A stretch of 64,000 nt of DNA from Candidatus Heimdallarchaeota archaeon (lineage in GTDB: Archaea; Asgardarchaeota; Heimdallarchaeia; JABLTI01), in the NCBI GenBank assembly GCA_019058275.1, contig JAHLVW010000045.1, positions 44,316 to 108,315 of the forward strand. The letters run 5' to 3'. This document shows, piece after piece, positions 45,791 through 63,836 of the stretch. Numbering within the stretch: position 1 is the first letter of the stretch; every line of letters begins with the position of its first letter. The notes under the pieces are model-generated. The model saw nothing but the letters and a program-made list of their open reading frames with translations, had not been told where the DNA came from and ran no database searches. The position numbers and the translations under genes were made by a program.

Positions 45791-47011
45791 TTATTTTCTA
45801 AAAATAACAGAAGGAAATTGTTTATTTCCACATGATTGTATCATTTCATCGAAATTTAAACCAACAAATTCCGCTGCGCGTTTTAACATTTCAATTTGAC
45901 CATGACTGTAAGGAATTCCCTCTCTTTCTGAATACTCGGATGCTTTAATTGAACGATCACCAGACCATCTTGTTTTTGGACCAAAATATTTTGATTCATA
46001 ATCTTTCATTAATTCTCCTACTCGATTTTTTGCTTCTTCTTTTGTATAAAGACCATCAATAATCTGAGCTTGAAAAGCTAGTGAGACTCTTTTATACCTA
46101 GAACCCATTTCAGCTTTTTCAAGAGAACCACCTGCAATTGCTAGCTCAATTTCAATCATCCTTAGTAGAGCATCTCCTTTATACCCAGAATGAGTCGATC
46201 CAAGTGGGAAGATACTTCCTTTCAAATATTGCTTACCATCTTTTATTCCAATGAATTCTTTGGGATCTAAAGTTGATTTATAATTCTTATCAGCTAAATA
46301 TTCAGGTATTGTTAACATTTCTCCGGTTTTATATGCCTTGATACAATAATTAGCAGCCATTTTTGTTAAAGCCATATCTACTGTAATTATTCCTTTATTA
46401 TGTGGTACAGAGATAGCTATTGGATTGGTACCCATTCTTACCTCTTTTCCTGCACCTTTTGTATAGTCTAATCCTTCTGGATCATCTCCCATTGGTTTGA
46501 CCAAAGCTGATGTTGTACAAGTAACAGTACCAATCAAGTCCATGCCATTTGCTATCATTTCACTCCAAACTCCAGCAGCACCAAAATGGTTTGCTTCCTT
46601 CACAAAGACTTTTGCAATACCATATTTTCTTGCCAGTTTCTTTACTAATTCAACAGCTATCATTGAACTAGTATGCCCTGGAGATGCATTACCGTTGATA
46701 ATTGCAATTGCAGGATATTTTTGAGGTATTATTTCTGGTTTTGCATCTGGTATTACGGTTGTAAATAGTCCTGTTCTTTTTACTGCTTCTTCTAATCCTG
46801 TACCACCCGCAAGACCATGAGAGAAAATCCCTTTTTTATCAGCTTCTATTAATACATGAGCAGTTACTTTTGCAGATTCTTCCGGATAACCGCTTTTTTT
46901 TAAAACCTCATATGCAAAATTGTAGATTTCCTCTACTTTGAAATGATTACGTTTGTCTCTCAATTTGTGATTCACCTGTATAAGATTAACTTCTGAGTCT
47001 TTTCTAAGCAA
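45791..47011 (-). CDS. Second Ldh_2 family oxidoreductase
   Basis: ADKKGIFSHG, NHFGAAG, GTNPI and GYKG motifs. Confidence 0.85.
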   Translation of the reverse strand: MLRKDSEVNLIQVNHKLRDKRNHFKVEEIYNFAYEVLKKSGYPEESAKVTAHVLIEADKKGIFSHGLAGGTGLEEAVKRTGLFTTVIPDAKPEIIPQKYPAIAIINGNASPGHTSSMIAVELVKKLARKYGIAKVFVKEANHFGAAGVWSEMIANGMDLIGTVTCTTSALVKPMGDDPEGLDYTKGAGKEVRMGTNPIAISVPHNKGIITVDMALTKMAANYCIKAYKTGEMLTIPEYLADKNYKSTLDPKEFIGIKDGKQYLKGSIFPLGSTHSGYKGDALLRMIEIELAIAGGSLEKAEMGSRYKRVSLAFQAQIIDGLYTKEEAKNRVGELMKDYESKYFGPKTRWSGDRSIKASEYSEREGIPYSHGQIEMLKRAAEFVGLNFDEMIQSCGNKQFPSVIFRK

Positions 47012-47164
47012 TCAATAATATCCTATAAATAAATCTAATAATTTTTTACTTAAACAAACTTTTGGAATTTCTTTAATAAATCTAATAATCTATGTTCTAA
47101 AAACTACATTTTTTAAAGGAGCATTTTAAAGAGTTCAATTTTGTAATTTAAATTGATGAAATAA

Positions 47165-47518
47165 ATGATAATAAAAAAGACAGCTGAAGAACCACTTTAT
47201 GAGAACCCACATGGAGTAGAAGGGAAAAATCTCTACAGTTATACAAATGCAGTAATAATTCATCTAACAATTAAGCCAGGTGAGTCCTTAAGAAGGCATA
47301 TAACTCATACAGATGTAGCATTTTATGTCCTAGAAGGTAAAGGAATAGTCTTAGTAGGGGACGAGAAAATGGAAATAGAAAAAGATACCTTGATAGAAAG
47401 TCCTGCAGATATTGTCCATTGTTGGTACAATGAGAGCAATGAAAATTTGAGAGTTTTAGTTATCAAAGCACCAAAACCAACCGAACCATCAACGTTTTTG
47501 GAAGAACGAAAACACTAA
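47165..47518 (+). CDS. Cupin domain protein
   Basis: PGE..RHITH...FYVLEGKG...PADIVHCWYN. Confidence 0.88.
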   Translation: MIIKKTAEEPLYENPHGVEGKNLYSYTNAVIIHLTIKPGESLRRHITHTDVAFYVLEGKGIVLVGDEKMEIEKDTLIESPADIVHCWYNESNENLRVLVIKAPKPTEPSTFLEERKH

Positions 47519-47583
47519 AACAAACCTTCATGTAACGAAAGATTCAAAGAAATTAGCTCACTTTGTAATAATAGTGAACATAC

Positions 47584-48388
47584 TTGTCAAGAAATAAATT
47601 TATGTCCAATACAGAATATGATAAAAGCTTCACCCATTTTTGGGGCATTAGGAGAAAAATAGCCCAATCACTTATTCCCCATGGTTTAAAGTCAGGTTTA
47701 AAGATCCTTGATGTTTTAGCAGGTCATGGATTTTATTCATATGAAATAACCAAGATTATTAAAAAAGGGAAAATAATATCAATAGGTTTGCAAAATGATG
47801 TAGAAAGCTTTCAAAGATTCAAGTTGTCAATGAAAAAGAGAAAGCAACAAAAATCGTTAGGATTAATAGATTATAGATTGATGGATATCACAAAGATTGA
47901 TTTTCCTGAAAATACTTTTGATTTTGTTATTAATTTTCTAGGCCTAGAAGATGTAAATATGACTAAAGGAACTAAGGGAGTAAAAGACGCATTAAAGGAA
48001 TGTTGTCGAGTGTTGAAACCAACAGGAACATTACAATTGACATTATGTTTAGAGGGAGATGAACCAGATCAGATCATTGCAAAAGAAATAACAGAAGCAA
48101 TAGGACATCAAGCAATTTTCCATCCGAAAGAATTCTATATTGATGAATTAAAGAGAAACAATAATAGAGGTAATTAATGAAAAATGGTTCTACACAAAAA
48201 GGAAAATGACTTATGACCAAGCAAAAGAGGAATAGTCTTTTGCTTGTAATGAAACACCAAAATATTTCAAAAACTTTGAGATCAAAACCATTCCTTTTGA
48301 GAAATTGTGGAACAAATATAGTAAAAGGATAAAGAAGTATGGTATGGCCTTTTATTCGCAATTGTTAGTATTAATAGGTAAAAAGTAA
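47584..48388 (+). pseudogene. Class I SAM-dependent methyltransferase with a frameshift (~48160) and an in-frame TAG (~48233)
   Basis: ILDVLAGHG, FPENTFDFV and RVLKPTG motifs. The shifted frame continues IEVINEKWFY...EE*SFACNE...LIGKK to TAA at 48388. Confidence 0.75.
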
Positions 48389-48457
48389 ACTCTCAACTAA
48401 CGAAAGATTCAAAAATCCGAAAAGAACAAAAAAGACTACCAAACGAGCGAAATAAAC

Positions 48458-48534
48458 GGCCGGGTAGTCTAGCACGGTATGATACTTGCTTTGGGAGTAA
48501 GTGGTCGCGGATTCAAATTCCGCCCCGGCCACCA
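48458..48534 (+). tRNA. tRNA-Pro(TGG), CCA encoded; integration target
   Basis: GGCCGGG/CCCGGCC acceptor stem, CTTGC-TTTGGGA-GTAAG anticodon arm, GCGGA-TTCAAAT-TCCGC T-arm and an ACCA end. Confidence 0.96.
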
Positions 48535-48609
48535 TTACTTTTGTTTTTTTCTTATTCTTTTGTCATTTTAGTTATTATATCCTTAGTAATTATTTTTCCC
48601 TTCATTCAT

Positions 48610-49230
48610 TCATCTTTTCATTTTTATTGGATCATTTCTCTCTTCATCATCTATTATTATAAACACTCCAACATTTCTTTTGATATATTCCTCTGTCCAT
48701 TCTTTCTTAATCCTCCATCCCCCTGTTGCAAACACACCATTATCCATATCGTAGAATGGTACATGTGTGTGGCTGATGATTAGTTTGTCTGTTGTCAATA
48801 TCATTGGCAAGAAGTCAGAGCCTTTGTTTACTAATCGATTTTTTAGTGCATTTGCTGCTTGCCCCCATGTTTCATCTGCTCTTTTCACTAAACCGATATT
48901 ATGTCCATGACAAACAATAATTCGCCCTTCCTTTGTGTTTAATATTGCCCATGGTAATACTTGAATGGTTGGGCAATCGAATAATATATTTCCTTCATGC
49001 CCCATCCCACCTGTTATGAAAATTATTTTTTCTTTCCATTTTTTATTGTCTATCCATTTTAAGAATCTCTTTAGCGCATTTTTTCCTTTTTCATCATAAG
49101 CATCTATAAAGTCGCCATTTAATATTATGAGATCTACTTTACTTGCAACACTTTCTATTGCTTCTTTAAACTCCTCCTCTAAGCAACCATCTGCTCCTAA
49201 ATGCGTATCACTAAATATCCCTGTCATCAT
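48610..49230 (-). CDS. Calcineurin-like metallophosphoesterase
   Basis: SDTHLG, NGDFID, GGMGHE (GNH variant), HGH and SHTH motifs. Confidence 0.85.
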   Translation of the reverse strand: MMTGIFSDTHLGADGCLEEEFKEAIESVASKVDLIILNGDFIDAYDEKGKNALKRFLKWIDNKKWKEKIIFITGGMGHEGNILFDCPTIQVLPWAILNTKEGRIIVCHGHNIGLVKRADETWGQAANALKNRLVNKGSDFLPMILTTDKLIISHTHVPFYDMDNGVFATGGWRIKKEWTEEYIKRNVGVFIIIDDEERNDPIKMKR

Positions 49231-51568
49231 CTTTCCTTATCATCTCCTCAAGCATTTTTCTTGTGCTGTCTTTTACTTTTTCTGAAGTATTACTCGTTAT
49301 TTGACTTATTTCCTCATCTGCACTCTCTTGCAATAAGTCATGCATTGCTCTTAACACTCGCTTTATTCTTGTAAAAACCGCTTCAGCATTTCCTAACTCC
49401 CCTCCTCGATCATAAAGGGCAATCTTGTTTTCATAATAATTTGTGTATGTACGAAATGATGACTCTGAGATATGAAGCTCTAATTCAATGCTTTTCATCA
49501 GCAATTCCTTTAACAATCTTATTGCTTGTTTCTTTTGTTCTTTTGAAAGAGCGTTTGTAAGACTTGCTACCTCAATAAGCATTCCACTTGTTTTTTCATC
49601 CCAAATGTGATTTTGTAGTTCATTTTCTCTTTTTTCCCTATTAATTACTAATGGCGTTTCATTTTGAGTTGGACTCGTTGATTGGCTCTCAAGTAACTTC
49701 CCATCTTTTGAGTATCTCATTATTTCACTTGTTTCCCAACGAATGATCATCTCACCAAATCGTATTGTTAGCTTCTCAAGTTCCTGCACTCTTGATTGCC
49801 CGTCAATGATAAAAAGAGGTGGTTTCATCCTGTTTCGTTCAACTGCTGTTTTGTTTATGTTAAGTTTATCAACAATTACTTTTTCGTTAGCTAACCTTTT
49901 TACTCTGTAAACTTTACCTTTACTTCCTAGATGTAATAGGTTCCCTGGTAGGGCTGAAAAGATTATGCGGCGCTCATCTATCGAAGCAATTTTCTCACTC
50001 TGATTTTCGTTAGTATTGTCTATTATCTCCCATCGTGGTTCTATCGAGCGGATTCGATGTTTCCTGATAAAAGCATTGACCCCATTTCTATTGGCAATAA
50101 TCAAAGTCCTTTCAATAAAGGGCAAGTGATTGTTTTCAGTTGAAAGTAAACCTTTTGCAAACAATAATGCTATAGCTGTTCGTGTAATACTAGAATCTAA
50201 TTCCTCTTTGCAAAAAGATAAAATATCATCAATCTTAGTTATGCCCAAAACCACCCTCAAGAGTACGAATGCTTGTGTTCTTTGCAGAGCTTTTGAGTCA
50301 AAGAGTATTCGTTCTGTTTTATTTTCTGTTAGAATCTCTTCTATTTTTTTGGGGTGATTCAAATAACAATTATCAATTGCTTTTTCATTATTGAATACTA
50401 ATGAAAAATTCTTTTTCTTAGAAATATCTGAAAACCTTAATCTTCCCAATCGTTGTAATAGACCATTTACTCCTGTAATTGGCCATGAAATATTTACTAT
50501 ATGAACGATATTTGGTATATCCATACCCAGCTCTAGTAATGATGTCGTAAAAACAAACCTTATTGTGCCATTATAAATTCCCTTCAGAATGTCTGTTTTT
50601 TCTTGACCAGTTAATTGACTATTAATACAAGCAAATGGCGAATGCCTTTGTAGGATTTCATCAGGTATGTTTGTTTTTTTCTTAAATAGCTCATTACATT
50701 TTGCTACCAACTCACCTACCTTTTGGATATCATCAACAAAGATCACGCAAGCCCCTTTTACTCTTCGCAAGTAAGGGTCTAACTTCTCTAATAGCAAATC
50801 TTCAATTGATTCTGGTTGAAGAATCATTACTCGAATAGTTCCTCTTGTTGCATTTCCGGTTATTATTTGAGCAGTTGGAAGGAATTTATCACGAAAGGTT
50901 TCTACTTCTTTTACTGTTGCAGAAGCTAGAACTACTCTTACTCTTGAATTTATCTTTTTCAAGATCGCAATCATTTCTCTAATATGTGCTAGGTACCCTC
51001 CTGAACCTGCATGTATCTCATCAACAACAAAGACCCCAACATTAAGGAGCCAACTAAGAAAATCCTCATTGCCTTCTTTAAAAAAGCGATAGAACAATTT
51101 GTCTATGGTTGCTAGGAGGATTTTAGGTTTCTTCTTCTCTATTACTTCAATTTCTTTTCGAGTTAAATCTCCATTATATCTGCTATATGTTATCTTTTTT
51201 CCAGTTACTTCAAAGATCTTATTGCAATATTTTGCAATACGTTGTTCTTGATCCTCAGCAAGCTGTTTTGTTGGGTAGATTATAACAGCACAGTCTATTC
51301 TATTATTAGCAATGTCCTCAAAAATTGGAAATAAAAATGATTCAGATTTTCCTGAACCTGTTCCAACTGCGAGAAAACAATCATTTCTTTTGAGAATTGT
51401 GCTAATCGCTTCTAATTGATATTTATAGAGTTTATATGGCAATAATTCTTGGACACTTTTACCAATTATTTTCAAACCAACATCATCATCACCTACATAA
51501 TAATCAGACACCTCACAATTTGATGGTGGTAGATCAAACACTGATTTCACAGGAATTCCTTTTGACAT
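49211..51568 (-). CDS. SF2 DEAH helicase, Hrq1/SftH (DUF1998)-like (start at 51568 after a GGAGG SD)
   Basis: Q-motif LYKYQ, GTGSGKS, IYPTKQLAEDQ, DEIH, SAT, TSLLELGMDI and QRLGR; C-terminal LYDRGGELG without the usual Cys cluster. Confidence 0.88.
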   Translation of the reverse strand: MSKGIPVKSVFDLPPSNCEVSDYYVGDDDVGLKIIGKSVQELLPYKLYKYQLEAISTILKRNDCFLAVGTGSGKSESFLFPIFEDIANNRIDCAVIIYPTKQLAEDQEQRIAKYCNKIFEVTGKKITYSRYNGDLTRKEIEVIEKKKPKILLATIDKLFYRFFKEGNEDFLSWLLNVGVFVVDEIHAGSGGYLAHIREMIAILKKINSRVRVVLASATVKEVETFRDKFLPTAQIITGNATRGTIRVMILQPESIEDLLLEKLDPYLRRVKGACVIFVDDIQKVGELVAKCNELFKKKTNIPDEILQRHSPFACINSQLTGQEKTDILKGIYNGTIRFVFTTSLLELGMDIPNIVHIVNISWPITGVNGLLQRLGRLRFSDISKKKNFSLVFNNEKAIDNCYLNHPKKIEEILTENKTERILFDSKALQRTQAFVLLRVVLGITKIDDILSFCKEELDSSITRTAIALLFAKGLLSTENNHLPFIERTLIIANRNGVNAFIRKHRIRSIEPRWEIIDNTNENQSEKIASIDERRIIFSALPGNLLHLGSKGKVYRVKRLANEKVIVDKLNINKTAVERNRMKPPLFIIDGQSRVQELEKLTIRFGEMIIRWETSEIMRYSKDGKLLESQSTSPTQNETPLVINREKRENELQNHIWDEKTSGMLIEVASLTNALSKEQKKQAIRLLKELLMKSIELELHISESSFRTYTNYYENKIALYDRGGELGNAEAVFTRIKRVLRAMHDLLQESADEEISQITSNTSEKVKDSTRKMLEEMIRKDDDRDI

Positions 51569-51570
51569 CT

Positions 51571-52122
51571 TTATCCCTCCACCAATCTTGCGCTGATAAT
51601 GAACTCCCAAATTAACTCAACTTTATTTTTCAGAAATTTTTTGAATCCATCATCGAAACCTTCCGGTGAGTATGCTTCAACTATTTCATCAACAGCTAAA
51701 TCAATCATATCAATTTGATTATCTTCTTCTATAAATTCCACTTGACTAAGCATTTCTTTGATTCCCTGTTGAAGGAGTTCTTCCTGCTTCCTCATAGCAA
51801 AATTTCTTTCTTGCCTTTCTGCTATTTCATCAAGTCTTTGATATTCAATTAACATTTCAGGTGGTAACTCTTTTCCAGTGGTCAAGCATAGATATAGCTT
51901 ATTTAATTGAACCAATTTATCTTCCTTGAGCCAATATCTGTAAAGATTTCTACTTCCAACACGCTTGATCAAGCCATCTTGTTGTAATACCTCGAGAGTA
52001 AGATAGGTCTCACTGAGTGGTAAATTTACTTCAATAGAAATCTCTTTGGCACTCTTAGGATAATTGATACCATGTTTATTGTATTCCTCAAGCAAAAAGA
52101 GCATTACTCCAAGTTTATCCAT
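51571..52122 (-). CDS. wHTH DNA-binding protein with a helical C-terminus
   Basis: SAKEISIEVNLPLSETYLTLEVLQQDGLIKR...YRYWL; overlaps the Cas1-like gene stop. Confidence 0.7.
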   Translation of the reverse strand: MDKLGVMLFLLEEYNKHGINYPKSAKEISIEVNLPLSETYLTLEVLQQDGLIKRVGSRNLYRYWLKEDKLVQLNKLYLCLTTGKELPPEMLIEYQRLDEIAERQERNFAMRKQEELLQQGIKEMLSQVEFIEEDNQIDMIDLAVDEIVEAYSPEGFDDGFKKFLKNKVELIWEFIISARLVEG

Positions 52123-53600
52123 GATACAGGCAACTCCAACATTGTTTCACGAAATTCATTAGTAATTGGTGATAATTGGCCAATTGTTCTACCATGCTTT
52201 TGATGATGTTTTTCTTCTCTATCAGGAAAGAGGAAAGCTAACTTTTCAAAATTAGTAATTTCATGATTCACTCTTTGTTCTATGTTTTTTGATCTCATCC
52301 AAACTAATGGTTGAAAATCTAATTTTTGTGTCTCCTCTTGGCAGATTTGGAAAATATTATCATTCAAATTCTCCCTAATCCCAGTTGGCAAACATTCCCA
52401 CTCTAATACTAATCGCCACAATTTAACTGCTAAATTATCCCCGAAAATTGAGTTTTTTATGGATAGGTGCTCCTCCTCTAACCTATTGCCTACATTTGTC
52501 AAGAGAAGATCAAATCTGTCGATTTCTTCCCTACAAGCATCTCTAAAAGAAGAATACTGTTTTCCTCGATAATAACAAGGGTTTTCGAAGAGTTCTTCCT
52601 TCTTTTCAAAAAGGATTTCGTATCCGTATCGTGTTACAGCGTAAGTTCTCCCCCCTTTGAACGCTGTTAACCGCTTAATTTCATCATGAGTAATTTCTTC
52701 AGCTAAGATGGCATCAACTAGCATGTAGTGACCTGCTTTCTTCAGTGAATCACCAAAATCTAATGGTAACCCCATCCAAGAGAGATCAGAATAATAACTA
52801 AAGTGAGAGAAACCACCAACACCTAAATAGTTAATGCCTTTCTCTTCCAGAAGAGTCCATATTTCTTCTTCACAGAATTGATATTCTGTATTAAACAATA
52901 CATCAGTAGGTGTTTGAGCCATACTGTTGAAGTTTCCAATCATGCGCTTGTGTCTGTAGAGACGGTCAGAAACTCTATGGCTTATTCCAAAATCATGTGG
53001 AGCTATTAGTTCATTCGTGAACTTCCAGAGAACCTCAGCAGCAAAACCTTCTGCAGAATTGCATAACTTGTTTGTATGACTATGATAACCAAAGAGATAA
53101 GCGTCACCGATTTTATCAATATGTTTCTTTAATGCTCTCTGATCAGGTAACATTTCTTGCAAAGTAAAAATAAGACTAAGATCACTCTTCATAGCTGTTT
53201 TCATGTAAAGATTATTGAAACCATTTCCTAATCTTATGGCATCAACATAGCCTGCTCTCTTTGGTTCAATTCGTTCAACATTAAACCAACCGCAGAGGTT
53301 TGTTTTCCGCTCGTAATAGCAACCATGATCAAGTAATCGTTGCTTAATCTCATCATCTATACCAGCATAATCAAAGATGTACTTGATATCTTGTAGCTTA
53401 TATCTTACATCTCCAATATACAAATCATCATTGATTATTCGCACATCATATCCTTGATAAATTGGAATTCCTAGTTTTGTTTTTACTTGCTTAATTTCAT
53501 CTGCTTCCAAACCAGTTAATTTGTATATTTGATCATATAGTATATTGTTGCTATCTTTCACACATCGTATATACTGTTTTGTTTTATTTCTATTAGTCAT
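52104..53600 (-). CDS. cas1: Highly divergent Cas1/casposase-like integrase (498 aa from the ATG at 53600)
   Basis: Cas1 motifs in the correct order: beta-rich N-domain (YQGYDVRIINDDLYI...IKYIF...IDDEIKQRLLDHG), AEGFAAEVLW (E184), FGISHR, TPTDVLFNTEY, GINYLGVGGFSH (H266), LPLDFGDSLK (D281/D284) and YRGKQYSSFRDAC. Recognised by eye only. Confidence 0.75.
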   Translation of the reverse strand: MTNRNKTKQYIRCVKDSNNILYDQIYKLTGLEADEIKQVKTKLGIPIYQGYDVRIINDDLYIGDVRYKLQDIKYIFDYAGIDDEIKQRLLDHGCYYERKTNLCGWFNVERIEPKRAGYVDAIRLGNGFNNLYMKTAMKSDLSLIFTLQEMLPDQRALKKHIDKIGDAYLFGYHSHTNKLCNSAEGFAAEVLWKFTNELIAPHDFGISHRVSDRLYRHKRMIGNFNSMAQTPTDVLFNTEYQFCEEEIWTLLEEKGINYLGVGGFSHFSYYSDLSWMGLPLDFGDSLKKAGHYMLVDAILAEEITHDEIKRLTAFKGGRTYAVTRYGYEILFEKKEELFENPCYYRGKQYSSFRDACREEIDRFDLLLTNVGNRLEEEHLSIKNSIFGDNLAVKLWRLVLEWECLPTGIRENLNDNIFQICQEETQKLDFQPLVWMRSKNIEQRVNHEITNFEKLAFLFPDREEKHHQKHGRTIGQLSPITNEFRETMLELPVSWINLE

Positions 53601-53622
53601 TTTTATCTCTCTTTTTTTCCAA

Positions 53623-55698
53623 TCAATTTCTTTCTTGAATGAGCTTAAATGATGAACCGCACCTTGGACACCTTGTTGGTGTTGAACCTTGTTGCGGAAA
53701 GGGTGCTGTACCAAATGCTTCTAAGGGGATCATTTCACCTCGCTCATCATAACAGAATCGGCAAAAATGGGTATATTCTTCCTCGCCCTCTTCTGTTTGT
53801 CCATCAAATCTCTTTGGATTTGATCTATAGAATTCATCAATGGAAAATTGCATTTCTATTGTTTCCTCTTCTAGGAATGCTTCGCACGCAATAGTATCTT
53901 TTCTGAGCATCGAGGTTGTAATATAATCCATTTTTTCTTTTGGTACTTTTCGTTCTGCTGTTTCTCTTACATCCCGCCAAAAATTACAATGATTTTTTTC
54001 ATAATAATAGCAGTCTCCACATTTCTTATAGAAATACTCAGGAATCTCTTTTGTTGAATAATATGTTATTCTTTTCCCTTTTGGTGGTTTACCTGTAACA
54101 GTTTTTAGTGATAATAAATCGTTTTTCTCAAGACTAACTAATGCTCGTTCAACATCTGAACTTAATAATGAAAGGTTTAAAGCAATCAGAGTAAGTGTCA
54201 TTGGAATTGTTGCATATTCTAGCTCTTCTTTGACAGCTTGTTCGATTGCTAACCGGTCTTTCTTTCCTATTAAAGGTACATCCATTAAGTCAAGGTTTTG
54301 TCCTATTGCTTTGCTGATAAGGCCAAAATTCTTTTTTGCTTCGGGTGTCATGTGCTCTTGAAGACTTGCCAATAATATTGATACTTTGAAAATAGTAAAG
54401 CTATCTTGTGTTCTTGAAAGAATTTTAGCAATAACCTCATCTTCATCATTACCTTTAGTTTTCAACCTTCCAAGTACCATTTGTAAATCATCATAAGCTA
54501 ATTTTCCATCAGTAAAATTATGGAAGATTTCCGAGATACAATTCCAATCCAAAGTATCATTTTGTGTTCTATTTTTAATATTCAATAAAACGCCCATGGG
54601 ATCTTCTCGTATTTCTTTGAAATATGTTGAAGCTATAAGGAACTTCTTGCCAAATGGCGTAAGAGTGTATATCCCTGAATTTTCTCTTACTTTAGAAATT
54701 AACGCAAAGTCACCTAGTGATTTTTGATATTTATCAAATAGACCTTCAGAGAAATTCCTTGGTTTAAACAATATTTCAATTAACATTTTTTGAAGAAAAT
54801 CATGACTAGCTTCTAATTTGGATATATTTTGGAGTAATCGACAAATGAGTGAGTTTTGAATTCGTTGAATCATTTTGCTTTTTGATGGTTGTCCAGAATA
54901 GAGTCTTAACAACATTAAATATGGGAGAACAGATTGAAATTCTTCTTTAAGGACCTCTGGATTCAAATCTGAATTAAAGTAAAATTCGTGATCTCCTGAA
55001 ATTTTAACCGCTGTTGTTACTATTAACATGTTCTTTTGTTCATCTAAAGGAACTAAACCTGGAGAGATGTAATGCATTCTGATGTTTTGGTTATTCGCTT
55101 TTCTCTTGAAAAACAAAATGCCATCTATATCAAAAGTAGTGAAGCTTTTTCTGGTTCTTCTTAGCGAGTCATTTTCTCTTAAAGGATCAACAAAAATATA
55201 TGCGTTTGTATGTGGGAGATTAATTCTGTTCTTTAATTTAACATCAGAACTTTTCCGATAAAGTAAGTTTCGAAGCAGACAATCATAGCTTGTAATTATC
55301 ACACAATCATTTGCTGATGGGTAGCTGTTCCCTTTGAATTTTGAAAAAGTGGACGCAACTCGAATGGCATATTTATTTGATAAGGGATAAAAACCTTCAT
55401 TGGATAAATTCTCAGTGGAAAAATTAGTTTCTTGATGAAGATTGAGCATAGTGAATATCTTTCTTGCTTCATCAGCTGTTCGCACAACGATTATAGAAGA
55501 TGAGTTGGCGAATCGCGAATTTAGAAGAGCTGAAGTAACAGCAATTTGTAATTGTTCATCAAGATCTGGTGTCACAAATAGCATATCTTCATCACAGCTT
55601 ACTGCTTTCCGAATAGTAGCATTATCAACACCTCTTGGGAAGGGATAATCTCGAAGAACTGTAGTAATGGCTTTTGGTAAAGCATTCACAAATCTCAT
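53623..55698 (-). CDS. Inactivated Hel308/Ski2-like helicase domain fused to wHTH and C-terminal Cys clusters (start at 55698)
   Basis: Degenerate Walker A 'MLFVTPDLDEQL', Ia 'VRTADEA', Ib 'IITSYDCL', Walker B 'IFVDPL' and III 'ISPG'; a late wHTH; CGDC..C, CRFC and CPRC. Confidence 0.6.
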   Translation of the reverse strand: MRFVNALPKAITTVLRDYPFPRGVDNATIRKAVSCDEDMLFVTPDLDEQLQIAVTSALLNSRFANSSSIIVVRTADEARKIFTMLNLHQETNFSTENLSNEGFYPLSNKYAIRVASTFSKFKGNSYPSANDCVIITSYDCLLRNLLYRKSSDVKLKNRINLPHTNAYIFVDPLRENDSLRRTRKSFTTFDIDGILFFKRKANNQNIRMHYISPGLVPLDEQKNMLIVTTAVKISGDHEFYFNSDLNPEVLKEEFQSVLPYLMLLRLYSGQPSKSKMIQRIQNSLICRLLQNISKLEASHDFLQKMLIEILFKPRNFSEGLFDKYQKSLGDFALISKVRENSGIYTLTPFGKKFLIASTYFKEIREDPMGVLLNIKNRTQNDTLDWNCISEIFHNFTDGKLAYDDLQMVLGRLKTKGNDEDEVIAKILSRTQDSFTIFKVSILLASLQEHMTPEAKKNFGLISKAIGQNLDLMDVPLIGKKDRLAIEQAVKEELEYATIPMTLTLIALNLSLLSSDVERALVSLEKNDLLSLKTVTGKPPKGKRITYYSTKEIPEYFYKKCGDCYYYEKNHCNFWRDVRETAERKVPKEKMDYITTSMLRKDTIACEAFLEEETIEMQFSIDEFYRSNPKRFDGQTEEGEEEYTHFCRFCYDERGEMIPLEAFGTAPFPQQGSTPTRCPRCGSSFKLIQERN

Positions 55699-55699
55699 A

Positions 55700-56302
55700 T
55701 TAATCTCCCTTTTCTTTTTGTGTTGAATAGTTACCAATTGCTGTGCTCCCACAATATTCCTTGATAATTGCTCTTAAATTTTCTTTTAATTCATCTTGTG
55801 ACAAATGACTATTTTCTACTAAACTGTTCAAAAGTGTCTCAATAAGTTCTGATAAGTACCCCTTGTCTGTTTCTAATTGATTTAGAATATATGCTAACTC
55901 CTCTCTGTTCTTTTGTAATTGCTTAATTCCTCTCATAGAAGGTTTCATCTGTTTTATTGTAATAGCAATTTGGAGATCAGGATAGTAAATATTTAGAATA
56001 AAACGGAATAATGGATTATTGATATTAACTTGATAAGCTTGTGTTTTTGAACGCTGAAGTTTGGTTAAAATATTGTTTTTCACTAGAAAGCTAACTAAAT
56101 TATCTATTGTCCTTGAAGATAAGGATAGTTTTTCATCTATTTTGAATGCTTTTAATGAAGGATAATAATATACACCCTGATTTAATGCCTTATCAATCAA
56201 ATATTTGCAGAAGATAGCTACTGAGTTTGTTACTTTTATTTTTGAACTGAATAATCCCTCATGAAAATATTGCTCTTGTACAACTGATATTTCAGAAGGC
56301 AT
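55700..56302 (-). CDS. wHTH protein (replication-initiator/HTH_36-like) with a coiled coil; first gene of the Cas1 operon
   Basis: YPSLKAF...LSLSSRTIDNLVSFLVKNNIL...YQVN; its stop is 1 nt before the next ATG. Confidence 0.6.
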   Translation of the reverse strand: MPSEISVVQEQYFHEGLFSSKIKVTNSVAIFCKYLIDKALNQGVYYYPSLKAFKIDEKLSLSSRTIDNLVSFLVKNNILTKLQRSKTQAYQVNINNPLFRFILNIYYPDLQIAITIKQMKPSMRGIKQLQKNREELAYILNQLETDKGYLSELIETLLNSLVENSHLSQDELKENLRAIIKEYCGSTAIGNYSTQKEKGD

Positions 56303-56341
56303 AATTATCAGTCTAATACTGCTAGATTTTATTTAAAAATC

Positions 56342-56406
56342 AATAAATTCGCTAAAAAACAGAAAGCAAAGCAAAATCAAAAAAATAAATCGCGGAAAAA
56401 CAGAAA
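56342..56406. repeat. Two imperfect ~23-bp direct repeats upstream of the Cas1 operon
   Basis: AATAAATTCGCTAAAAAACAGAAA (56342-56365) and AATAAATCGCGGAAAAACAGAAA (56384-56406), 42 bp apart. Confidence 0.45.
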
Positions 56407-56610
56407 CGGGAATTCATGTTATAGTTAGAAATCGTAATAATCCAGAAAAGCTCAATTTCACATCTGAAAAGAAGCCTTCTCCTACCTTATTTTTCGAAAC
56501 GAGAGATTTCTTTAAGTCCCTTTAAAATTTCTAAAATTGTGTTTTTTTCTTTTTTTTTCAAATTAAAAGTGAAACTCACAAGAAATCATCTTCTAAATTC
56601 CTCTCAGAAG

Positions 56611-56690
56611 CTTGTGTCGGAACGACGACCGTAAAAGGGGCCCCCCACGAAGTGGGGGAAATAGGTCGCACGAGGGGAGCGTTCAGCAAC
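56611..56690. other. GC-rich nested stem-loop (candidate origin/ssDNA signal or ncRNA)
   Basis: CCCCCAC-GAA-GTGGGGG hairpin (56642-56658) nested within CGACC/GGTCG and GAACG/CGTTC stems, in otherwise AT-rich DNA. Confidence 0.55.
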
Positions 56691-56805
56691 AGAGAAAGAT
56701 ATTATTGAAACTAGTTTTTTTTCTTCCGAATTTGTGAATTATTCTTTACAGTCTTTCTCCACTGATAATTTCGGAATTACTCAAAAAAATTCCTTATAGG
56801 TAAAA

Positions 56806-58407
56806 TCAGTTTTTTGTTTGGAAGAATGTTTTAAGGTAAAGTTTTAGAACAGAATTTAGTATCTTATTATTAGTAACTTTTATACCAAAATAGTCGCTTA
56901 TATTTTTGTAAAGGATTTCTTTATTTTCAGATGTAGACAGGATAAGAAGATATCTATTCCGAAGTGATAAATTTCTTACAAGAGAGAGTAATTTTTCATT
57001 AGGTTGTAAGTCTAACCTTGCTTGTGTTTTACGAGAATGAAATAAATCAAGCTTATACTTATGTAAAAAAGGCATCAAATTTATTGGTGTACTAGAAATC
57101 ATTAGTAATAGTTTTTCCAAAAGGGGTATTGGGAGACTATCACTATATTCATATGAAGCTAATTTTCCTTTGGAAATCCCAAGGTATTCAGCTAAGTCTT
57201 GTTGTGTCCAAGAAAAATTATTCCGAACATTTCGTAAGAAAATAGTACATCCTACGACATGAAGAGTAGTAAGAAGGGAAAAGTTGAAGTAGTTTTCACC
57301 TTGTAATGAGAGAATCATTTTTGGATTAAAATCATAGATCAAAAAGTCTGTTGAGTGGTTTACTAGATTATACCTTTGTCGAGTTAGATATTCGTTAAAG
57401 TCTATCTTTTTAATCGGATGCCTTGGATGTAATACATTACTAAGGATGTCTTTTGAAATAGCTTTAATATTAACGGTGTACCCTGTTCCTAAATCTACTT
57501 CTCTTTCAGTTAATGAATATTTAATTTTATTTACATCTAAAACTCTTGCGAATTCATAAGCAAAAAATTTAGAGGAAGAGCTGAAACTAACATTGTCTTT
57601 ATAACTGCCGTCTGCATCTAGTGCTCCAGACCAAAACTCCCAACGAAGATCCTCGTCTGAAACAAAAATAAGTGGTTCTCTTAAAGCATGATACTTTTTA
57701 CCGGTAATAGGTTGATCAGTTAAAAAATTGACTAATCGCACAAGCCACTTATTATTTAGATGAAGTAACCAGACTTTTTTCTCACCGGTAACAGGCCCTT
57801 CAAATCCAAAAAGAGTTTTAGCTAGTGTTTGCATCATTTCCATGTGTTCTTTTGAAAAATCAACTATCACCACATTATGATAATTTAGATGCCCATCACC
57901 AATAACTGAGCCAAGAAAATAAGCTAAATCTCTACTTATTCTTGTAGGCATGTGAAAGTGTTCTCCCCGAGCAGATTGGAATGGAACATAATCTTGTGTT
58001 AGGAATTCTTGCCAGTGATCACTTAACCTGAATAGTGGAAAAGGTAAGCGTTTCTGATTCTCAGTGTAATCAATGATCTTTTGCTGCCACTTCTTAATGG
58101 AATAATCAATAGCTGTATCTTGAAAATAATGATGACTTCTCTCAGCTAATGTTAATGATCGCTTACGTAATTTGCTCGCTAAATCTACTGTTAAAGAAAT
58201 GTATGGTAATCTTTGAATCAGCCGTTCTCCTGCAAGAAAGTCGTGCTTGCGGATCATTATAGAGTAAAGGTTAAGTTTTCCTTGTTCTAGAAATATTTTC
58301 TCTTGCTTTTTTTGTTCTATTAACTTGTTCGCTGTTAACCATTCATTCTTTGGTGTTGGTTCCGTGTCTATCAGTAATGGATCATTTCGCCAGTTAAGCG
58401 TCATCAA
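56806..58407 (-). CDS. Stand-alone double-motif LAGLIDADG endonuclease fused to an XRE-type HTH
   Basis: LAYFLGSVIGDGHL and FWSGALDADGSY motifs; WTQQDLAEYLGISKGKLASYE. Confidence 0.8.
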   Translation of the reverse strand: MMTLNWRNDPLLIDTEPTPKNEWLTANKLIEQKKQEKIFLEQGKLNLYSIMIRKHDFLAGERLIQRLPYISLTVDLASKLRKRSLTLAERSHHYFQDTAIDYSIKKWQQKIIDYTENQKRLPFPLFRLSDHWQEFLTQDYVPFQSARGEHFHMPTRISRDLAYFLGSVIGDGHLNYHNVVIVDFSKEHMEMMQTLAKTLFGFEGPVTGEKKVWLLHLNNKWLVRLVNFLTDQPITGKKYHALREPLIFVSDEDLRWEFWSGALDADGSYKDNVSFSSSSKFFAYEFARVLDVNKIKYSLTEREVDLGTGYTVNIKAISKDILSNVLHPRHPIKKIDFNEYLTRQRYNLVNHSTDFLIYDFNPKMILSLQGENYFNFSLLTTLHVVGCTIFLRNVRNNFSWTQQDLAEYLGISKGKLASYEYSDSLPIPLLEKLLLMISSTPINLMPFLHKYKLDLFHSRKTQARLDLQPNEKLLSLVRNLSLRNRYLLILSTSENKEILYKNISDYFGIKVTNNKILNSVLKLYLKTFFQTKN

Positions 58408-58452
58408 GAATCATTCTCCAATAGCTTTGGTACGATCATACAATAAAAAGTC

Positions 58453-58662
58453 CTATTCTTCTACATACCATATCTGTGTTGGATTCTTGGTTACTCGAAC
58501 CTTTTTCTTTGACTGAATTAAAGCTATCATCTCAATATATTCATTTACAGTTCGCCAATTTAATCCTGTTTTTTTAGCGATCTTTCCCACACTTTGTGGT
58601 TCATCTGTTACCGTAGCCAATATCTGCTTGAAAATTTCCTCAGATTTCCTTCTAGAATCCAT
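58453..58662 (-). CDS. Small wHTH regulator
   Basis: PQSVGKIAKKTGLNWRTVNEYIEMI. Confidence 0.75.
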   Translation of the reverse strand: MDSRRKSEEIFKQILATVTDEPQSVGKIAKKTGLNWRTVNEYIEMIALIQSKKKVRVTKNPTQIWYVEE

Positions 58663-58712
58663 ACTGAAACCCTCGCTATTGTATTCTTATTAAATATTGC
58701 ATACTTATTTTA

Positions 58713-58731
58713 TATAAACGCTAGCTTTATA
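58713..58731. promoter_or_regulatory. Near-palindrome containing back-to-back TATA-like boxes in the divergent promoter
   Basis: TATAAA-C-GCTAGC-TTTATA lies between the divergent starts at 58662 and 58779. Confidence 0.4.
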
Positions 58732-58778
58732 AATATACGAAAGTATATTATTATACAATATCATTGTAAAATAACACG

Positions 58779-60947
58779 GTGACACTCATGTCTAACAAAC
58801 GATCAAAAAACAAGCAAGTGGTTTATTCAAGTAATAAACCGGGGAGAGGAGTGAAATTCTCTGTTTATACTAACGGAGAAATTGTAATAGAAGGAGTAGG
58901 CTCTCAATATGGGTTAAACATTCCTGCTCAGTTAAAACAATGGTTAAATCTTCCAGAAAGAAATGACTCTTTCAATTGGAAACTGAAAGCTGATCTTGAA
59001 ATTATTTACGAGGATAAAAAGCATTTCTTGAAAGATATTTCAGTAACCATTCTATTTAAATCGAAGAAATGGTTCATTAGTCCAAGTAATGTTCTTATCG
59101 AAGGAAAAAATCTTCGCAGCATACTTTCTGAGAGATCTGAATTGATCTGTTCTTTAATTTTACCTAGAAAATATTGGAGTAAAAAATATCTCCAAAGTAT
59201 AAATATATTCAATTCTTTTAACTACAGCGAAAAATCAAATTTCAAAACAATAGCTATTGGTGGAAAAGCAACAGGATTTTATGAAGTAATTCAAGACAAC
59301 AAAAAACAATTTTTTATTAAATTAGAAACAAGTATGAGTGAATCAGGAGCTATACAGTTTCCAGCAGAATTAGCTCAGGTATTTAAGAATTGGACTAGCA
59401 ACAAAGAATTATTCCTTTGTTTGTTTGAAGATGGACAGAAGCAAATAGTTGAAGCATCATTTGTTAAAGATAAAAGTAGACCTGAACGCATTCGAAAAGT
59501 ATTGAATTTTTCTTATAATGGTGAAAGAAAAAATGTTTCCGTAATTTGTCACTCAAGTAATTTAGAATTATCATCTAAGATGAAGCAAGATGTTGAACTT
59601 AAACAAATATTAGTAAAGTTTGGTTTTCAATTAAAATCACTCAAATCAAACGTTTTTCCATTGGGAAGTCATAAAAACAAAAGATTTGAAGAAAAAGTAA
59701 GATTACTTTTTACTAATGCTTTCAATAAAACTGATGCGATAGTCAGAGATGAGGTGGCTTTATCACCTAATTATTTAAAATCTCTCCCAATTGAAAGCCA
59801 GTATACTTTTGATTTGCTAGTATTTTATAAAAACAAGCAATTACCAACACCATCAAAACTTCTACTTCTAATTGAGATAAAATCATCCTTAGGTAAGAGC
59901 AAAACCAAAGTAATTAATGATAGTATAGCTAACTTGAAACATTATCAAACGCATTTAGGAGAGGAAAATGTTCTACCAATTTTTGTTATGAATGCTGTAT
60001 TCAATAAAAGAAAAAAAGAAATTATTGATATGTATAGTATTAAAAACGGTATTTTGATTCTTGACAATGATAAATTATGTTTATTCCGAGATCAACCTGA
60101 ATTGTTAATTGAAACTATTCTTTCATTTAAACAAAAAATATCTCTACTGCAAAATAATCCTTTAGTTACATATCATCCACAAACTAAAGAAATTGTCAGT
60201 ATAGAGAAGCTAAGAAATGAAGCATTAACATTACTTATCAATAAATCGAAGGGGGAGTTAGTTGACCGAAAAACTTTGAATTCTTATTGCATGTTAATGA
60301 ATATTCGTAAAGCAGATTTCAATCGGTTATACCATTACTATGAGTCAGCTGTTAATGAAAATCATTCGATGACATCTTCATTAACTCCTCCTATTTATAA
60401 AAATAAAAGTACAATTATTTACAAAGCCATACACAATCATTTGTGTGAAAACGGTTCTGTTTCCATGATTCAAAAAATACCACAACAATGCTTTAATCGA
60501 TCAAACTCTGAATTAAGACTGCATTCTCAACAAATCTATGATTTTCTACCAAAAGAAATGCATGTTGTGGGTTTGAAAGAATATAACCATCAAGGTAAAA
60601 CCTATGAAAAAATCATTCAAAAAGAACTAGAATCAAAAAAATATGAAGTAATACCTAACATCTTATTCTATTTTGCATTTCGATTAATTGAAATTGATTT
60701 ATTTGCATTGAGAGAAAAGGAGCTTCTTCTTACCAGCTGCAAAAATATGAGTAGTTTTGTTGACTTCCCACAAACTACAGTGGCGATTAAAAGAGCTGTT
60801 AAATTATTATCTTATAGAAAACAATTATTGAATGCAGATAAAGGTTTAGTATGTGTTAGAGTAAATAAACAATTTAGAGATAAATTCAAAAAGAAATTCA
60901 ATAATAAAGTGTTTGCTAAGGATATTGAAGTAAAGATTACTGATTAG
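58779..60947 (+). CDS. Protein with two PD-(D/E)xK restriction-like nuclease domains
   Basis: Domain 1: FEEKV...FDLLV...IEIKS. Domain 2: GKTYEKII...EIDLFA...TSCK. The N-terminal region has AbrB-like 'G.(N/Q)(I/F)PA(Q/E)L' segments. Confidence 0.65.
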   Translation: MTLMSNKRSKNKQVVYSSNKPGRGVKFSVYTNGEIVIEGVGSQYGLNIPAQLKQWLNLPERNDSFNWKLKADLEIIYEDKKHFLKDISVTILFKSKKWFISPSNVLIEGKNLRSILSERSELICSLILPRKYWSKKYLQSINIFNSFNYSEKSNFKTIAIGGKATGFYEVIQDNKKQFFIKLETSMSESGAIQFPAELAQVFKNWTSNKELFLCLFEDGQKQIVEASFVKDKSRPERIRKVLNFSYNGERKNVSVICHSSNLELSSKMKQDVELKQILVKFGFQLKSLKSNVFPLGSHKNKRFEEKVRLLFTNAFNKTDAIVRDEVALSPNYLKSLPIESQYTFDLLVFYKNKQLPTPSKLLLLIEIKSSLGKSKTKVINDSIANLKHYQTHLGEENVLPIFVMNAVFNKRKKEIIDMYSIKNGILILDNDKLCLFRDQPELLIETILSFKQKISLLQNNPLVTYHPQTKEIVSIEKLRNEALTLLINKSKGELVDRKTLNSYCMLMNIRKADFNRLYHYYESAVNENHSMTSSLTPPIYKNKSTIIYKAIHNHLCENGSVSMIQKIPQQCFNRSNSELRLHSQQIYDFLPKEMHVVGLKEYNHQGKTYEKIIQKELESKKYEVIPNILFYFAFRLIEIDLFALREKELLLTSCKNMSSFVDFPQTTVAIKRAVKLLSYRKQLLNADKGLVCVRVNKQFRDKFKKKFNNKVFAKDIEVKITD

Positions 60948-60959
60948 GACTGCATTAAA

Positions 60960-61646
60960 ATGTTCATTGATAAAATTACTAGTAATTCATTACCTCCTCC
61001 AGGTGTTGGAATGACAATTAGTTTTCTTTCACTTGGAAAAGAAACAGATACAAGTGTTGTAGTTAAGCATATCAAATCGGTTAAAAAAGCAAGTCGAAGA
61101 CTTTATTGTTTATTATATGTCCATGAATACCAAGAATTAACAATTATCCAAAAAAGGGAAATTTTCAAACCTTTTATTGATGAAGAATTTGAATCTTTAA
61201 AGTATCACATGGTACTTTTTTCAGGATTATATCATATTACTGAAAATATATCAAAATTACAAGATCTTGGAATGAATCATCCTAATGAACTTGTCCGTTG
61301 TGCTGCTATTTGGTCTCGAGCAAAATTAGGTGACCATAAGGATTTATTTGAACGAATTAAAGTTGAATCACCTAATGTAGAAGAAGATGAATCAATTTCA
61401 TTACTCGCAGCAAGTTTATACTTAATTAATAATAACAAAAATTCACAAGAAATGCTTTTTTTAAAGGATTATTTTCTTGATAATTTTTATGATGAAGGAA
61501 AAAAACAATTTTATGATCTTATCCTTCACAATGTTGACTTTTCATCAGAACTAATTGCTTATTTATTATGGCAAATAGGTTATAAGTATAAAACAATAGA
61601 TGATTGGCGTAGTTTGGATTTGGATTGGTTAATCCTAAATGGATAG
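60960..61646 (+). CDS. Hypothetical helical protein
   Basis: 228-aa ORF, co-oriented and 12 bp after the nuclease gene. Confidence 0.6.
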   Translation: MFIDKITSNSLPPPGVGMTISFLSLGKETDTSVVVKHIKSVKKASRRLYCLLYVHEYQELTIIQKREIFKPFIDEEFESLKYHMVLFSGLYHITENISKLQDLGMNHPNELVRCAAIWSRAKLGDHKDLFERIKVESPNVEEDESISLLAASLYLINNNKNSQEMLFLKDYFLDNFYDEGKKQFYDLILHNVDFSSELIAYLLWQIGYKYKTIDDWRSLDLDWLILNG

Positions 61647-61800
61647 CTTCTGTTATTTCTTTGTAGCTGATCCAATTAATATTATTTCACAAATTATTAC
61701 TATATTCTGCCCAATTATCCATGTTTCTAAAGTTTCATTTAGAGTTTTATATACAATTTCCCTTATTGTACATTGAGAATCAAATAAAGAAGGTTTAAGA

Positions 61801-62673: not shown

Positions 62674-62730
62674 CAAAATCACAAGGAGAATTCTACTATA
62701 AGTAATAATTTTAATTACTAATGATTGATT

Positions 62731-62763
62731 TCGCGGATTCGAATTCCGCCCCAGCTACCATTA
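62731..62763 (+). repeat. Copy 2 of the tRNA-Pro 3' end (att/TSD-like)
   Basis: TCGCGGATTCGAATTCCGCCCCAGCTACCATTA differs from 48505-48537 at 3 positions. Confidence 0.85.
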
Positions 62764-62880
62764 TCTTATTCTTCGTATTTTTGTAATTTTATTTCATCTA
62801 TGGTCTTTTCTCTATTTGGTTAGTTTATTTTTCCTATTTCTTGACCAAGTTTAAAAGCTTAGAAAGTCACTATTTTACTG

Positions 62881-63216
62881 ATGATTATGTCTCTCTCACT
62901 TCACCAACAGGCTCTCACTGCTTTTCTTACAAAGCTTCAAAAAGATTATTCCCCCCTATTAGAGCGAATCATACTTTTTGGTTCTTATAGCAAAGGTGAA
63001 GCCTTACCTGAAAGTGATATTGATGTTTTGATTATAATTACAACTGAAGATTTCCGTTTAAGACGTGCTATTATTTCTTTGAGCGCAGAAATCTTTCTTC
63101 AATATGCAGTTGATATTTCACCTAAAGTACTTTCTTTACATGATTTTGAACTCGCGCAAAAAAGGAATAATCTCTTTATACAACATATTCTTTCAGAAGG
63201 TGAAATCATTGTATGA
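62881..63216 (+). CDS. Minimal nucleotidyltransferase (MNT) antitoxin
   Basis: ILFGSYSKGEA...SDIDVL motif; C-terminal ILSEGEII. Confidence 0.92.
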   Translation: MIMSLSLHQQALTAFLTKLQKDYSPLLERIILFGSYSKGEALPESDIDVLIIITTEDFRLRRAIISLSAEIFLQYAVDISPKVLSLHDFELAQKRNNLFIQHILSEGEIIV

Positions 63217-63579: not shown

Positions 63580-63807
63580 ATTACAACAGATAAAGGCTAT
63601 TACGCTAATAAAACATTCTTTTATGGGCAGTCTTGATAGAAGGACGTGGGAGTTCAAAGGGCGTTTTCCCTTAGATCACGAATTCAACTCCCGTTCTCCG
63701 CTTCTTTTGTTTTATTTTTATTATGACAATAATTAAATTAGTTGGTATTTGGTTTGATATTCCTCCAGAAGAGATAGAGGAACTCAAACGATCTGCTCAA
63801 GGTCCTT

Positions 63808-63836
63808 GATTCGAATTCCACCCCGGCCACCATTAC
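63808..63836 (+). repeat. Copy 3 of the tRNA-Pro 3' end, closing a ~1.1 kb MNT-HEPN cassette
   Basis: GATTCGAATTCCACCCCGGCCACCATTAC differs from 48510-48538 at 2 positions. Confidence 0.85.

Follow-up and report, generated by a model that had tools for sequence, protein, structure and literature searches.

A deeply diverged Cas1-like protein in tRNA-linked islands of Heimdallarchaeota: a candidate integrase

Two settings are known for Cas1: it works with Cas2 in CRISPR adaptation, and in casposons it is found with a family B DNA polymerase (PolB). Whether there is a third is the question raised by a 64,000-nucleotide stretch of a Candidatus Heimdallarchaeota archaeon genome (assembly GCA_019058275.1, contig JAHLVW010000045.1, positions 44,316 to 108,315), here termed the window; coordinates given without a contig refer to it. 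The window carries a gene, here termed Cas1L, within a genomic island adjoining a tRNA gene. An earlier note on this DNA, made from the sequence alone, had read the gene as an extremely divergent solo Cas1 with an intact catalytic set. Is the protein a Cas1, and what does it do in such a place? We find that Cas1L forms a new branch of the Cas1 superfamily, deeply diverged and placed in a genomic context that is likewise new, and we somewhat favour the view that it serves as integrase for a new kind of mobile element that lacks PolB and targets tRNA genes.

The gene and its putative catalytic codons are placed as follows.

52104..53600, minus strand: Cas1L, the Cas1-like gene, 498 amino acids (aa), assigned from its open reading frame (ORF), Cas1 fold, catalytic mapping and conservation
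53049-53051, minus strand: codon of E184
52803-52805, minus strand: codon of H266
52758-52760, minus strand: codon of D281
52749-52751, minus strand: codon of D284

The ORF is open to 53714 on the minus strand. We take as start the ATG at 53600, which yields the 498-aa protein (P0002); an alternative TTG start at 53714 would bring overlap with the upstream gene, whose end lies at 53623. Every motif quoted in the earlier note is found in the translated ORF (AEGFAAEVLW, residues 183-192; TPTDVLFNTEYQF, 230-242; GVGGFSH, 260-266; LPLDFGDSLK, 278-287; YRGKQYSSFRDAC, 344-356), and its codon coordinates (E184 at 53051, H266 at 52805, D281 at 52760, D284 at 52751) are right. Cas1L found no family in Pfam, NCBIfam or PADLOC even at E≤1, and lies below the Pfam gathering threshold of PF01867; against all PDB chains, phmmer gave no match at E≤10 and hmmsearch with the family gave nothing relevant. 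Since these family and PDB sequence searches are empty, automated annotation would leave Cas1L a hypothetical protein, as the earlier note had expected.

The case for Cas1 begins with the fold. An AlphaFold2 model built from the Cas1L family alignment, A1 (predicted local distance difference test, pLDDT, 68; predicted template modelling score, pTM, 0.68), has strands at residues 45-98 and a helical domain from residue 113, the two-domain Cas1 architecture of an N-terminal beta domain and a C-terminal all-alpha catalytic domain. Residues 1-43, 210-227, 262-278 and 473-498 are modelled with low confidence. In a Foldseek search of the PDB the best 50 matches were all Cas1 or casposase, aligned over 340-380 columns, that is, over whole Cas1 chains; the leaders were the casposase 6opm_B (E 1.2e-6) and the Archaeoglobus fulgidus Cas1 4n06_B (E 2.3e-6). 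VIA-align 2, a structural aligner independent of Foldseek, was run against 48,161 chains. Its best match was 4n06_B (Z 17.9, root mean square deviation 3.0 Å over 240 residues, covering model residues 110-436, the alpha domain), with further matches to 7mi4_A (Z 17.4), 6opm_A (Z 16.5) and 2yzs_B, the last aligned from model residue 43. Ranks 1-12 were all Cas1 or casposase (Z 17.9-7.5), and rank 13, an unrelated fold, scored Z 5.8. Identity of Cas1L to solved Cas1 proteins is only 5-14%. The likeness to Cas1 is far beyond chance, and the predicted structure places Cas1L, as a true if very diverged member, in the structural superfamily of Cas1 and casposases. The earlier note had named in advance an unrelated fold as refuting its reading, and none was seen: the strong structural relatives are Cas1 and casposases only, for both domains.

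The model also delimits what lies outside the fold. The N-terminal extension is ∼43 aa long, close to the ∼40 aa first proposed, and is conserved within the family. At the C-terminus ∼110 extra residues had been claimed; because the fold stops at about residue 440, the extension there is ∼55-60 aa, and the other surplus length consists of insertions, including some in the helical domain.

The second line of evidence is conservation. Cas1L has ∼20 relatives in 5.8 billion proteins, nearly all 496-500 aa long and 42-81% identical, and for those that are named the source is Candidatus Heimdallarchaeota. Exhaustive phmmer searching of 1.84 billion cluster representatives added only distant relatives: a protein of 1215 aa (P0024; domain at 723-1188), one of 843 aa with a winged helix-turn-helix (wHTH) and zinc ribbons before the domain, and a 246-aa fragment. 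Invariant positions in A1 include N181, E184, A188, W192, D233, N237, E244-246, G260-G263, H266, D281, K287 and H291. E184, H266 and D281 are unchanged in 19 database homologues and nine copies from the genus, across clades only 40-50% identical. The earlier note had listed both D281 and D284 and proposed D284 for a metal site with E184 and H266; D281 is invariant, but position 284 varies between D, E and N, being acidic in 17 of the 19 database homologues and eight of the nine genus copies and N in the rest (two and one, respectively).

Profiles place these residues on canonical Cas1. Aligned by hhalign with 29 canonical Asgard Cas1 sequences from PF01867 loci, A1 matched at a probability of 78.5% (E 1.7e-5, 147 columns) with the motifs in register: E184 falls on the E of the Cas1 'lEa' motif, H266 on 'gFLH', D281 on the D of 'LDl.EeF' and D284 on its E. 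A second Heimdall Cas1-like family, with its alignment A3, matched A1 at 97.6% (E 3.9e-12, 408 columns) and canonical Cas1 at 92.3% (E 5.5e-7), and so bridges the gap between Cas1L and canonical Cas1. Judged from the alignments, Cas1L keeps the presumptive metal-binding E-H-D(-D/E) set; the fold match and the register of the motifs together support the initial reading of a very diverged Cas1 that retains E, H and D.

The A3 proteins are ∼620-700 aa long, form several subfamilies and occur in 10 of the 11 genomes of the genus. One of them, P0027 (619 aa, contig C48 of this genome, G000; loci L003/L054), combines a wHTH, zinc ribbons and a Cas1-like domain and passes the Pfam Cas1 cut-off narrowly (22.8 against 22.3 bits). 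Nearly all A3 genes adjoin a LAGLIDADG-HTH gene. This genome has three A3 genes (contigs C48, C91 and C16) and 3-5 genes of the A1 type, with two canonical cas1 genes elsewhere: at least 6-8 diverged Cas1-like genes, and about ten genes of the Cas1 superfamily when the canonical ones are counted.

What, then, is the setting? Cas1L lies in a 14.2-kb island that begins at the 3′ end of a tRNA gene and is bounded by copies of that end.

48458..48534, plus strand: tRNA-Pro(UGG), whose 3′ end is direct repeat 1 (DR1), the proximal island boundary (∼48500-48537), from repeat comparison
62731..62763, plus strand: DR2, a 33-nt copy (30/33) of the tRNA-Pro 3′ end, the distal boundary of the 14.2-kb island
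63808..63836, plus strand: DR3, a 29-nt copy of the tRNA-Pro 3′ end, closing a 1.07-kb unit with a nucleotidyltransferase gene

The tRNA gene is 75 nt from the stop codon of a phosphoesterase gene, the last of an operon to which Cas1L belongs. The genes of the operon and its neighbours are as follows.

55700..56302, minus strand: wHTH protein, 200 aa, first gene of the operon; weak HTH Pfam matches, kept in all copies
53623..55698, minus strand: partner protein, 691 aa, with a C-terminal wHTH and Cys-rich zinc ribbon; from synteny, fusions, tblastn and invariant Cys pairs
51571..52122, minus strand: wHTH protein (TrmB-like), 183 aa, overlapping the Cas1L stop; from Pfam scan and synteny
49211..51610, minus strand: superfamily 2 DEAD/DEAH helicase of the Lhr/ligase-associated type with a weak MZB-like C-terminus (PF00270 4e-29, PF00271 2e-12, TIGR04121 1e-24)
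48610..49230, minus strand: metallophosphoesterase, last gene of the operon and nearest the tRNA in every copy (PF00149 1e-6)
56806..58407, minus strand: LAGLIDADG-HTH(XRE) protein, 533 aa, accompanying both Cas1-like families (PF14528 7e-6, HTH_3)
58779..60947, plus strand: 722-aa protein (p722), conserved beside cassettes; from model and Foldseek
60960..61646, plus strand: 228-aa protein, conserved beside p722; from synteny

Operon genes on the Cas1L strand overlap or nearly touch, and the p722 and 228-aa genes lie divergently beyond the LAGLIDADG-HTH gene. The order is identical at all other copies, in this genome (contigs C52, C84 and C19) and in sister genomes, with 3-5 diverged copies per genome, all within one Heimdall genus.

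Genes that would place Cas1L in a familiar system were not found. No PolB domain was detected in this island, all 11 of whose ORFs of ≥100 aa were scanned, and no Cas2 or Cas4 domain in ORFs of ≥100 aa between 48.6 and 63.2 kb; the 64-kb window has no CRISPR repeat array. The word 'solo' in the earlier note stands as regards cas2 and the array, but the gene sits inside a conserved operon. In the scanned ORFs of this island and of the islands of a sister genome, G127, there is no tyrosine recombinase (PF00589), PolB or Cas2; for the elements that carry A3 genes, the remaining ORFs were scanned in two, those at tRNA-Leu and tRNA-Val of G127. The Cas1-like gene is the only integrase-type gene in the islands so delimited and scanned, in which a very diverged or split integrase may be present.

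The partner protein bears directly on function. In a distant version of the cassette (contig C106, L012) it is fused to Cas1L, a single 1021-aa ORF being matched by both proteins, and P0024 is likewise a partner-Cas1L fusion. The C-terminal wHTH/ribbon module of the partner is homologous to the N-terminus of A3-type proteins, and tblastn with p709 as query matched the N-terminus of P0027-type genes at E 1e-8 to 1e-9. This pattern of fusion with Cas1-like domains is good evidence, at the level of sequence, that the partner would supply the DNA-binding module of the Cas1L enzyme. Complex prediction for Cas1L and the last 202 residues of the partner scored 0.00, which counts neither for nor against. 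Elsewhere the partner gene is split or truncated in two cassettes (L009 3145-5251, contig C52 of this genome; L047 9482-10840, contig C11 of G127), and the neighbouring Cas1-like gene is intact.

The association with tRNA genes recurs. Of the eight informative cassettes, seven adjoin the 3′ end of a tRNA gene or what is left of one; the phosphoesterase end is proximal in every case, at a distance of 1-125 nt in most copies. One cassette is at tRNA-Pro, one at tRNA-Glu, two are at tRNA-Lys (one of these truncated) and three at an intron-containing tRNA, which in one case is a decayed remnant. On contig C11 of G127 the last 29 nt of the tRNA have two further copies, one 25 kb away with 100% identity and one 21 kb away with 93%. 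The site used there and in another genome, G131, between a small-GTPase gene and this tRNA, is empty in four sister genomes; the two islands at this one site carry Cas1L of different clades (43% identical), and their flanks are 83-87% identical. The conserved module marks islands at tRNA 3′ ends that are bounded by copies of the tRNA end, multi-copy, patchy in distribution, and absent at the site in sisters.

Two of these cassettes have unusual tRNA junctions. On contig C84 of this genome (L010 1-120) the phosphoesterase stop directly abuts a tRNA-Lys truncated in the T loop, with the 3′ part missing there. On contig C145 of genome G130 an inverted copy of the final 35 nt of the phosphoesterase gene, 97% identical, lies across a tRNA-Lys gene (L052 6503-6537 and 6737-6771); this may be the end of a second, facing cassette or an assembly artefact at the contig end.

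The A3 family occupies comparable elements. In G127 three of them, of ∼8-11 kb, adjoin the 3′ ends of tRNA-Leu, tRNA-Val and an intron-containing tRNA.

L055 5947-13925 (contig C6 of G127): A3 element at tRNA-Leu, 8.0 kb, with a 42-nt bounding repeat

This element encodes a LAGLIDADG-HTH protein, a PD-(D/E)XK nuclease (PF12705), a wHTH protein, the Cas1-like protein and Orc1/Cdc6; Orc1/Cdc6 with a PD-(D/E)XK nuclease is typical mobile-element content. The element at the intron-containing tRNA is 10.2 kb long with a 56-nt bounding repeat. That at tRNA-Val begins exactly after the CCA and carries a PF12705 nuclease; no copy of the tRNA-Val end was found beyond it. About 11 kb past tRNA-Val there is the 3′ part of another tRNA, and the >140 nt after it match the start of the tRNA-Val element at 93% identity; we read this as a second element.

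These observations make an integrase role for Cas1L in the elements plausible but unproven. Cas1L, aimed by the wHTH/zinc-ribbon module of its partner, would insert PolB-less elements at tRNA 3′ ends, in a manner resembling that of casposases acting next to tRNA-Pro; the helicase, phosphoesterase and associated nucleases would process ends or repair junctions, and regulation, site cleavage or excision would fall to the LAGLIDADG-HTH protein. The casposase of Aciduliprofundum boonei offers a precedent: it targets 15 bp that overlap the 3′ end of tRNA-Pro, together with a T-loop 'leader' (PMC5137440). We regard this account as the most economical because a Cas1-like protein (with wHTH/ribbon) and a LAGLIDADG-HTH protein are the sole core common to all the tRNA-inserted elements.

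Casposons are the closest parallel. Casposases (Methanosarcina mazei, PDB 6OPM; A. boonei) share the two-domain Cas1 fold with Cas1L, 6opm_B being its top Foldseek match, and casposons, like the Cas1L islands, lack Cas2 and a CRISPR array, are multi-gene elements with direct repeats, and insert beside the 3′ end and T loop of a tRNA gene (tRNA-Pro for A. boonei); PD-(D/E)XK nucleases, associated with casposons, also occur in the sister A3 elements. Unlike casposons, the Cas1L islands have no PolB and no detectable terminal inverted repeats, and the obligatory companions of Cas1L are the LAGLIDADG-HTH protein, the Lhr-like helicase and the metallophosphoesterase. Unlike casposases, Cas1L lies below the threshold of every Cas1 hidden Markov model and has its DNA-binding module on a separate 691-aa partner. 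The target duplication of casposons is fixed at 14-15 bp, whereas the repeats of Cas1L and A3 elements are 27-56 nt long, imperfect and similar to attachment (att) sites. CRISPR Cas1 proteins (PF01867; A. fulgidus 4N06, and the Cas4-Cas1 structure 7MI4) are the best structural matches of Cas1L and have the E, H and D/E motifs in identical order; Cas1L differs in having no cas2, array or Pfam match and in carrying N- and C-terminal extensions and insertions in the helical domain.

The boundary repeats are where the integrase reading is most strained. Four genomes of the genus carry arrays of 3-6 direct copies of the final ∼35 nt of tRNA-Pro, a segment that runs from the end of the variable loop through the T arm and acceptor strand to the CCA (window 48505-63836; L043 5901-10656; L044; L045). 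The units are 0.3-14 kb long, and their cargo includes an AAA_21+RloB pair, a nucleotidyltransferase, proteases and an ABC transporter and no integrase. The repeat has a sharp 5′ boundary common to all copies. Across the four genomes, non-resident copies carry G in the T loop and GCGGA/TCCGC in the stem; resident tRNAs carry A in place of the G, and those of two genomes have CCGGA/TCCGG as their stem. Such a pattern suggests that the repeats are brought in by the units and are not duplicates of the resident target.

The end of the window is also the end of the contig, and its last 193 nt (63808-64000) match contig C108 of this genome (4722-4914) at 96%. C108 holds three to four additional copies of the tRNA-Pro repeat, from which we take it that the array probably continues past the window.

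Several findings count against Cas1L as the integrase. The non-resident repeat alleles match one another and not the resident tRNA, and the repeats are imperfect and 27-56 nt long; because of this they look, as sequences, more like att sites than target-site duplications. Some repeat-bounded units hold defence-type or other cargo and no Cas1-like gene. No terminal inverted repeats were found, inverted matches being at chance level only (for example 20 nt at 48082/61643, outside the repeat boundaries). The genome has six PF00589 matches, all on other contigs, whose products could act in trans. Finally, the loop bearing H266 (residues 262-278) has pLDDT <50 in the model. At the island termini no conserved sequence was found besides a pyrimidine-rich tract, and in four sediment-metagenome contig sets compared over 46000-64000 the contigs break at the repeats, with no joint that skips the island.

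Much of this would follow if the Cas1L operon were cargo, a defence or DNA-repair system carried in tRNA-linked islands that are moved by another recombinase, in trans or since lost, with Cas1L acting on invading or damaged DNA rather than on island ends. We take this, the main rival, to be possible, though less probable than not. The att-like repeats, with imperfect alleles of variable length common across genomes, speak for it, as do the tRNA-Pro units with AAA_21+RloB or the nucleotidyltransferase and no Cas1-like gene, and the six tyrosine recombinases elsewhere in the genome. So does neighbouring content: a G127 island has a MmeI-like restriction-modification gene, the next unit a UvrD-like helicase, and the operon helicase itself gives weak PADLOC matches to BrxHI, SngC, Cas3 and DruE. 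Several diverged paralogous copies per genome are also typical of defence systems. Yet the Cas1-like and LAGLIDADG-HTH genes are the only set common to all islands, including the 8-kb elements that otherwise hold Orc1/Cdc6 and PD-(D/E)XK genes; the module is always at the tRNA-proximal end; a Cas1 catalytic domain fused with a DNA-binding wHTH/zinc-ribbon module has the build of a transposase or integrase; and the delimited islands have no recombinase. In their tRNA 3′ insertion, tRNA-end repeats, tandem accretion and empty sites, the islands resemble tyrosine-recombinase elements (SSV- and pNOB8-type, and bacterial islands), from which the absence of a tyrosine or serine recombinase gene in those delimited and scanned sets them apart.

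The arrays invite another account, in which Cas1L is a cassette-capture enzyme, intermediate between casposon and CRISPR systems, that inserts kilobase-scale units at the tRNA 3′ end and duplicates ∼30-35 bp. The 3-6-copy arrays of the ∼35-nt tRNA-Pro segment in four genomes, with units of 0.3-14 kb, the sharp common 5′ boundary of a repeat whose length is within the CRISPR range, and a Cas1-like gene (A1 or A3) in 10 of the 11 genomes would all fit. The alleles speak against it: target duplication predicts repeats like the resident tRNA, but they are common to the units instead, and we consider this account improbable. The broader proposal that Cas1L represents a third functional Cas1 branch, without Cas2 and PolB, building integron-like cassette arrays at tRNA 3′ ends with ∼30-35 bp duplicated, is doubtful. 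That Cas1L, though Cas1-derived in fold, has no catalytic activity and is for example a structural or DNA-binding subunit, or that the similarity misleads, might be argued from its low identity to solved Cas1 proteins, the missing Pfam match, the low pLDDT of the catalytic loops and the N at position 284 in a few members, and is very improbable given E184, H266, D281, N181, D233, N237 and K287, invariant across clades at 40-50% identity, and a Z of 17.9 over 240 residues, far above background.

Other parts of the operon have relatives of their own. The helicase with a calcineurin-like phosphoesterase downstream of Cas1L, in overlapping frames, is of a type with the Lhr-Core/MPE (metallophosphoesterase) pairs of ligase-associated DNA-damage-response operons (TIGR04121); unlike those, it is set within a mobile-island operon with a Cas1-like gene, and it scores 86 bits against an equivalog cut-off of 850. 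The p722 protein has no sequence relatives in Pfam or the PDB. Its model (pLDDT 73) has N-terminal beta-barrel domains that Foldseek matches to bicupins, and further Foldseek matches are to the cyclic oligoadenylate-activated nucleases Can2, Card1 and Can1 (probability 0.93-0.99, low template modelling scores); the model suggests that p722 may carry restriction-endonuclease-like domains. Sequence comparison of p722 with the PDDEXK_1 nucleases of the A3 elements found no similarity, and the protein-atlas leads NERD and Mrr_cat scored <0.9 and were set aside.

One conserved element of the cassette lies between genes.

56600..56694, minus strand: conserved intergenic element, ∼95 nt, between the LAGLIDADG-HTH and 200-aa wHTH genes; nearly invariant DNA with predicted nested stems

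Seven cassette lineages have it in near-invariant form, with an identity among their proteins of only 30-75%. RNAalifold predicts the stems CUC/GAG, CUCGUG/CACGAG and CGACC/GGUCG and a hairpin with two covarying pairs, and Rfam has no match to it. The element is a candidate non-coding RNA or DNA site; the idea of a guide or bridge RNA was set aside, as it has no complementarity to the tRNA repeat.

In the literature on Cas1 and casposons in Heimdall and other Asgard archaea we found no description of the Cas1L family. A study of circular Heimdallarchaeum genomes describes tRNA-integrated elements and never mentions Cas1. Surveys based on Cas1 undercount the superfamily, because the diverged Cas1-like genes of this genome, at least 6-8 in number, are invisible to standard annotation. 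For Asgard tRNA-linked islands without a recognisable integrase, Cas1L is an integrase candidate, and its family is possibly one of site-specific DNA-insertion enzymes. The Cas1L islands may be a third way of using Cas1, and such a setting would bear on how Cas1 integrases were recruited and on the evolution of leader/repeat-type target recognition.

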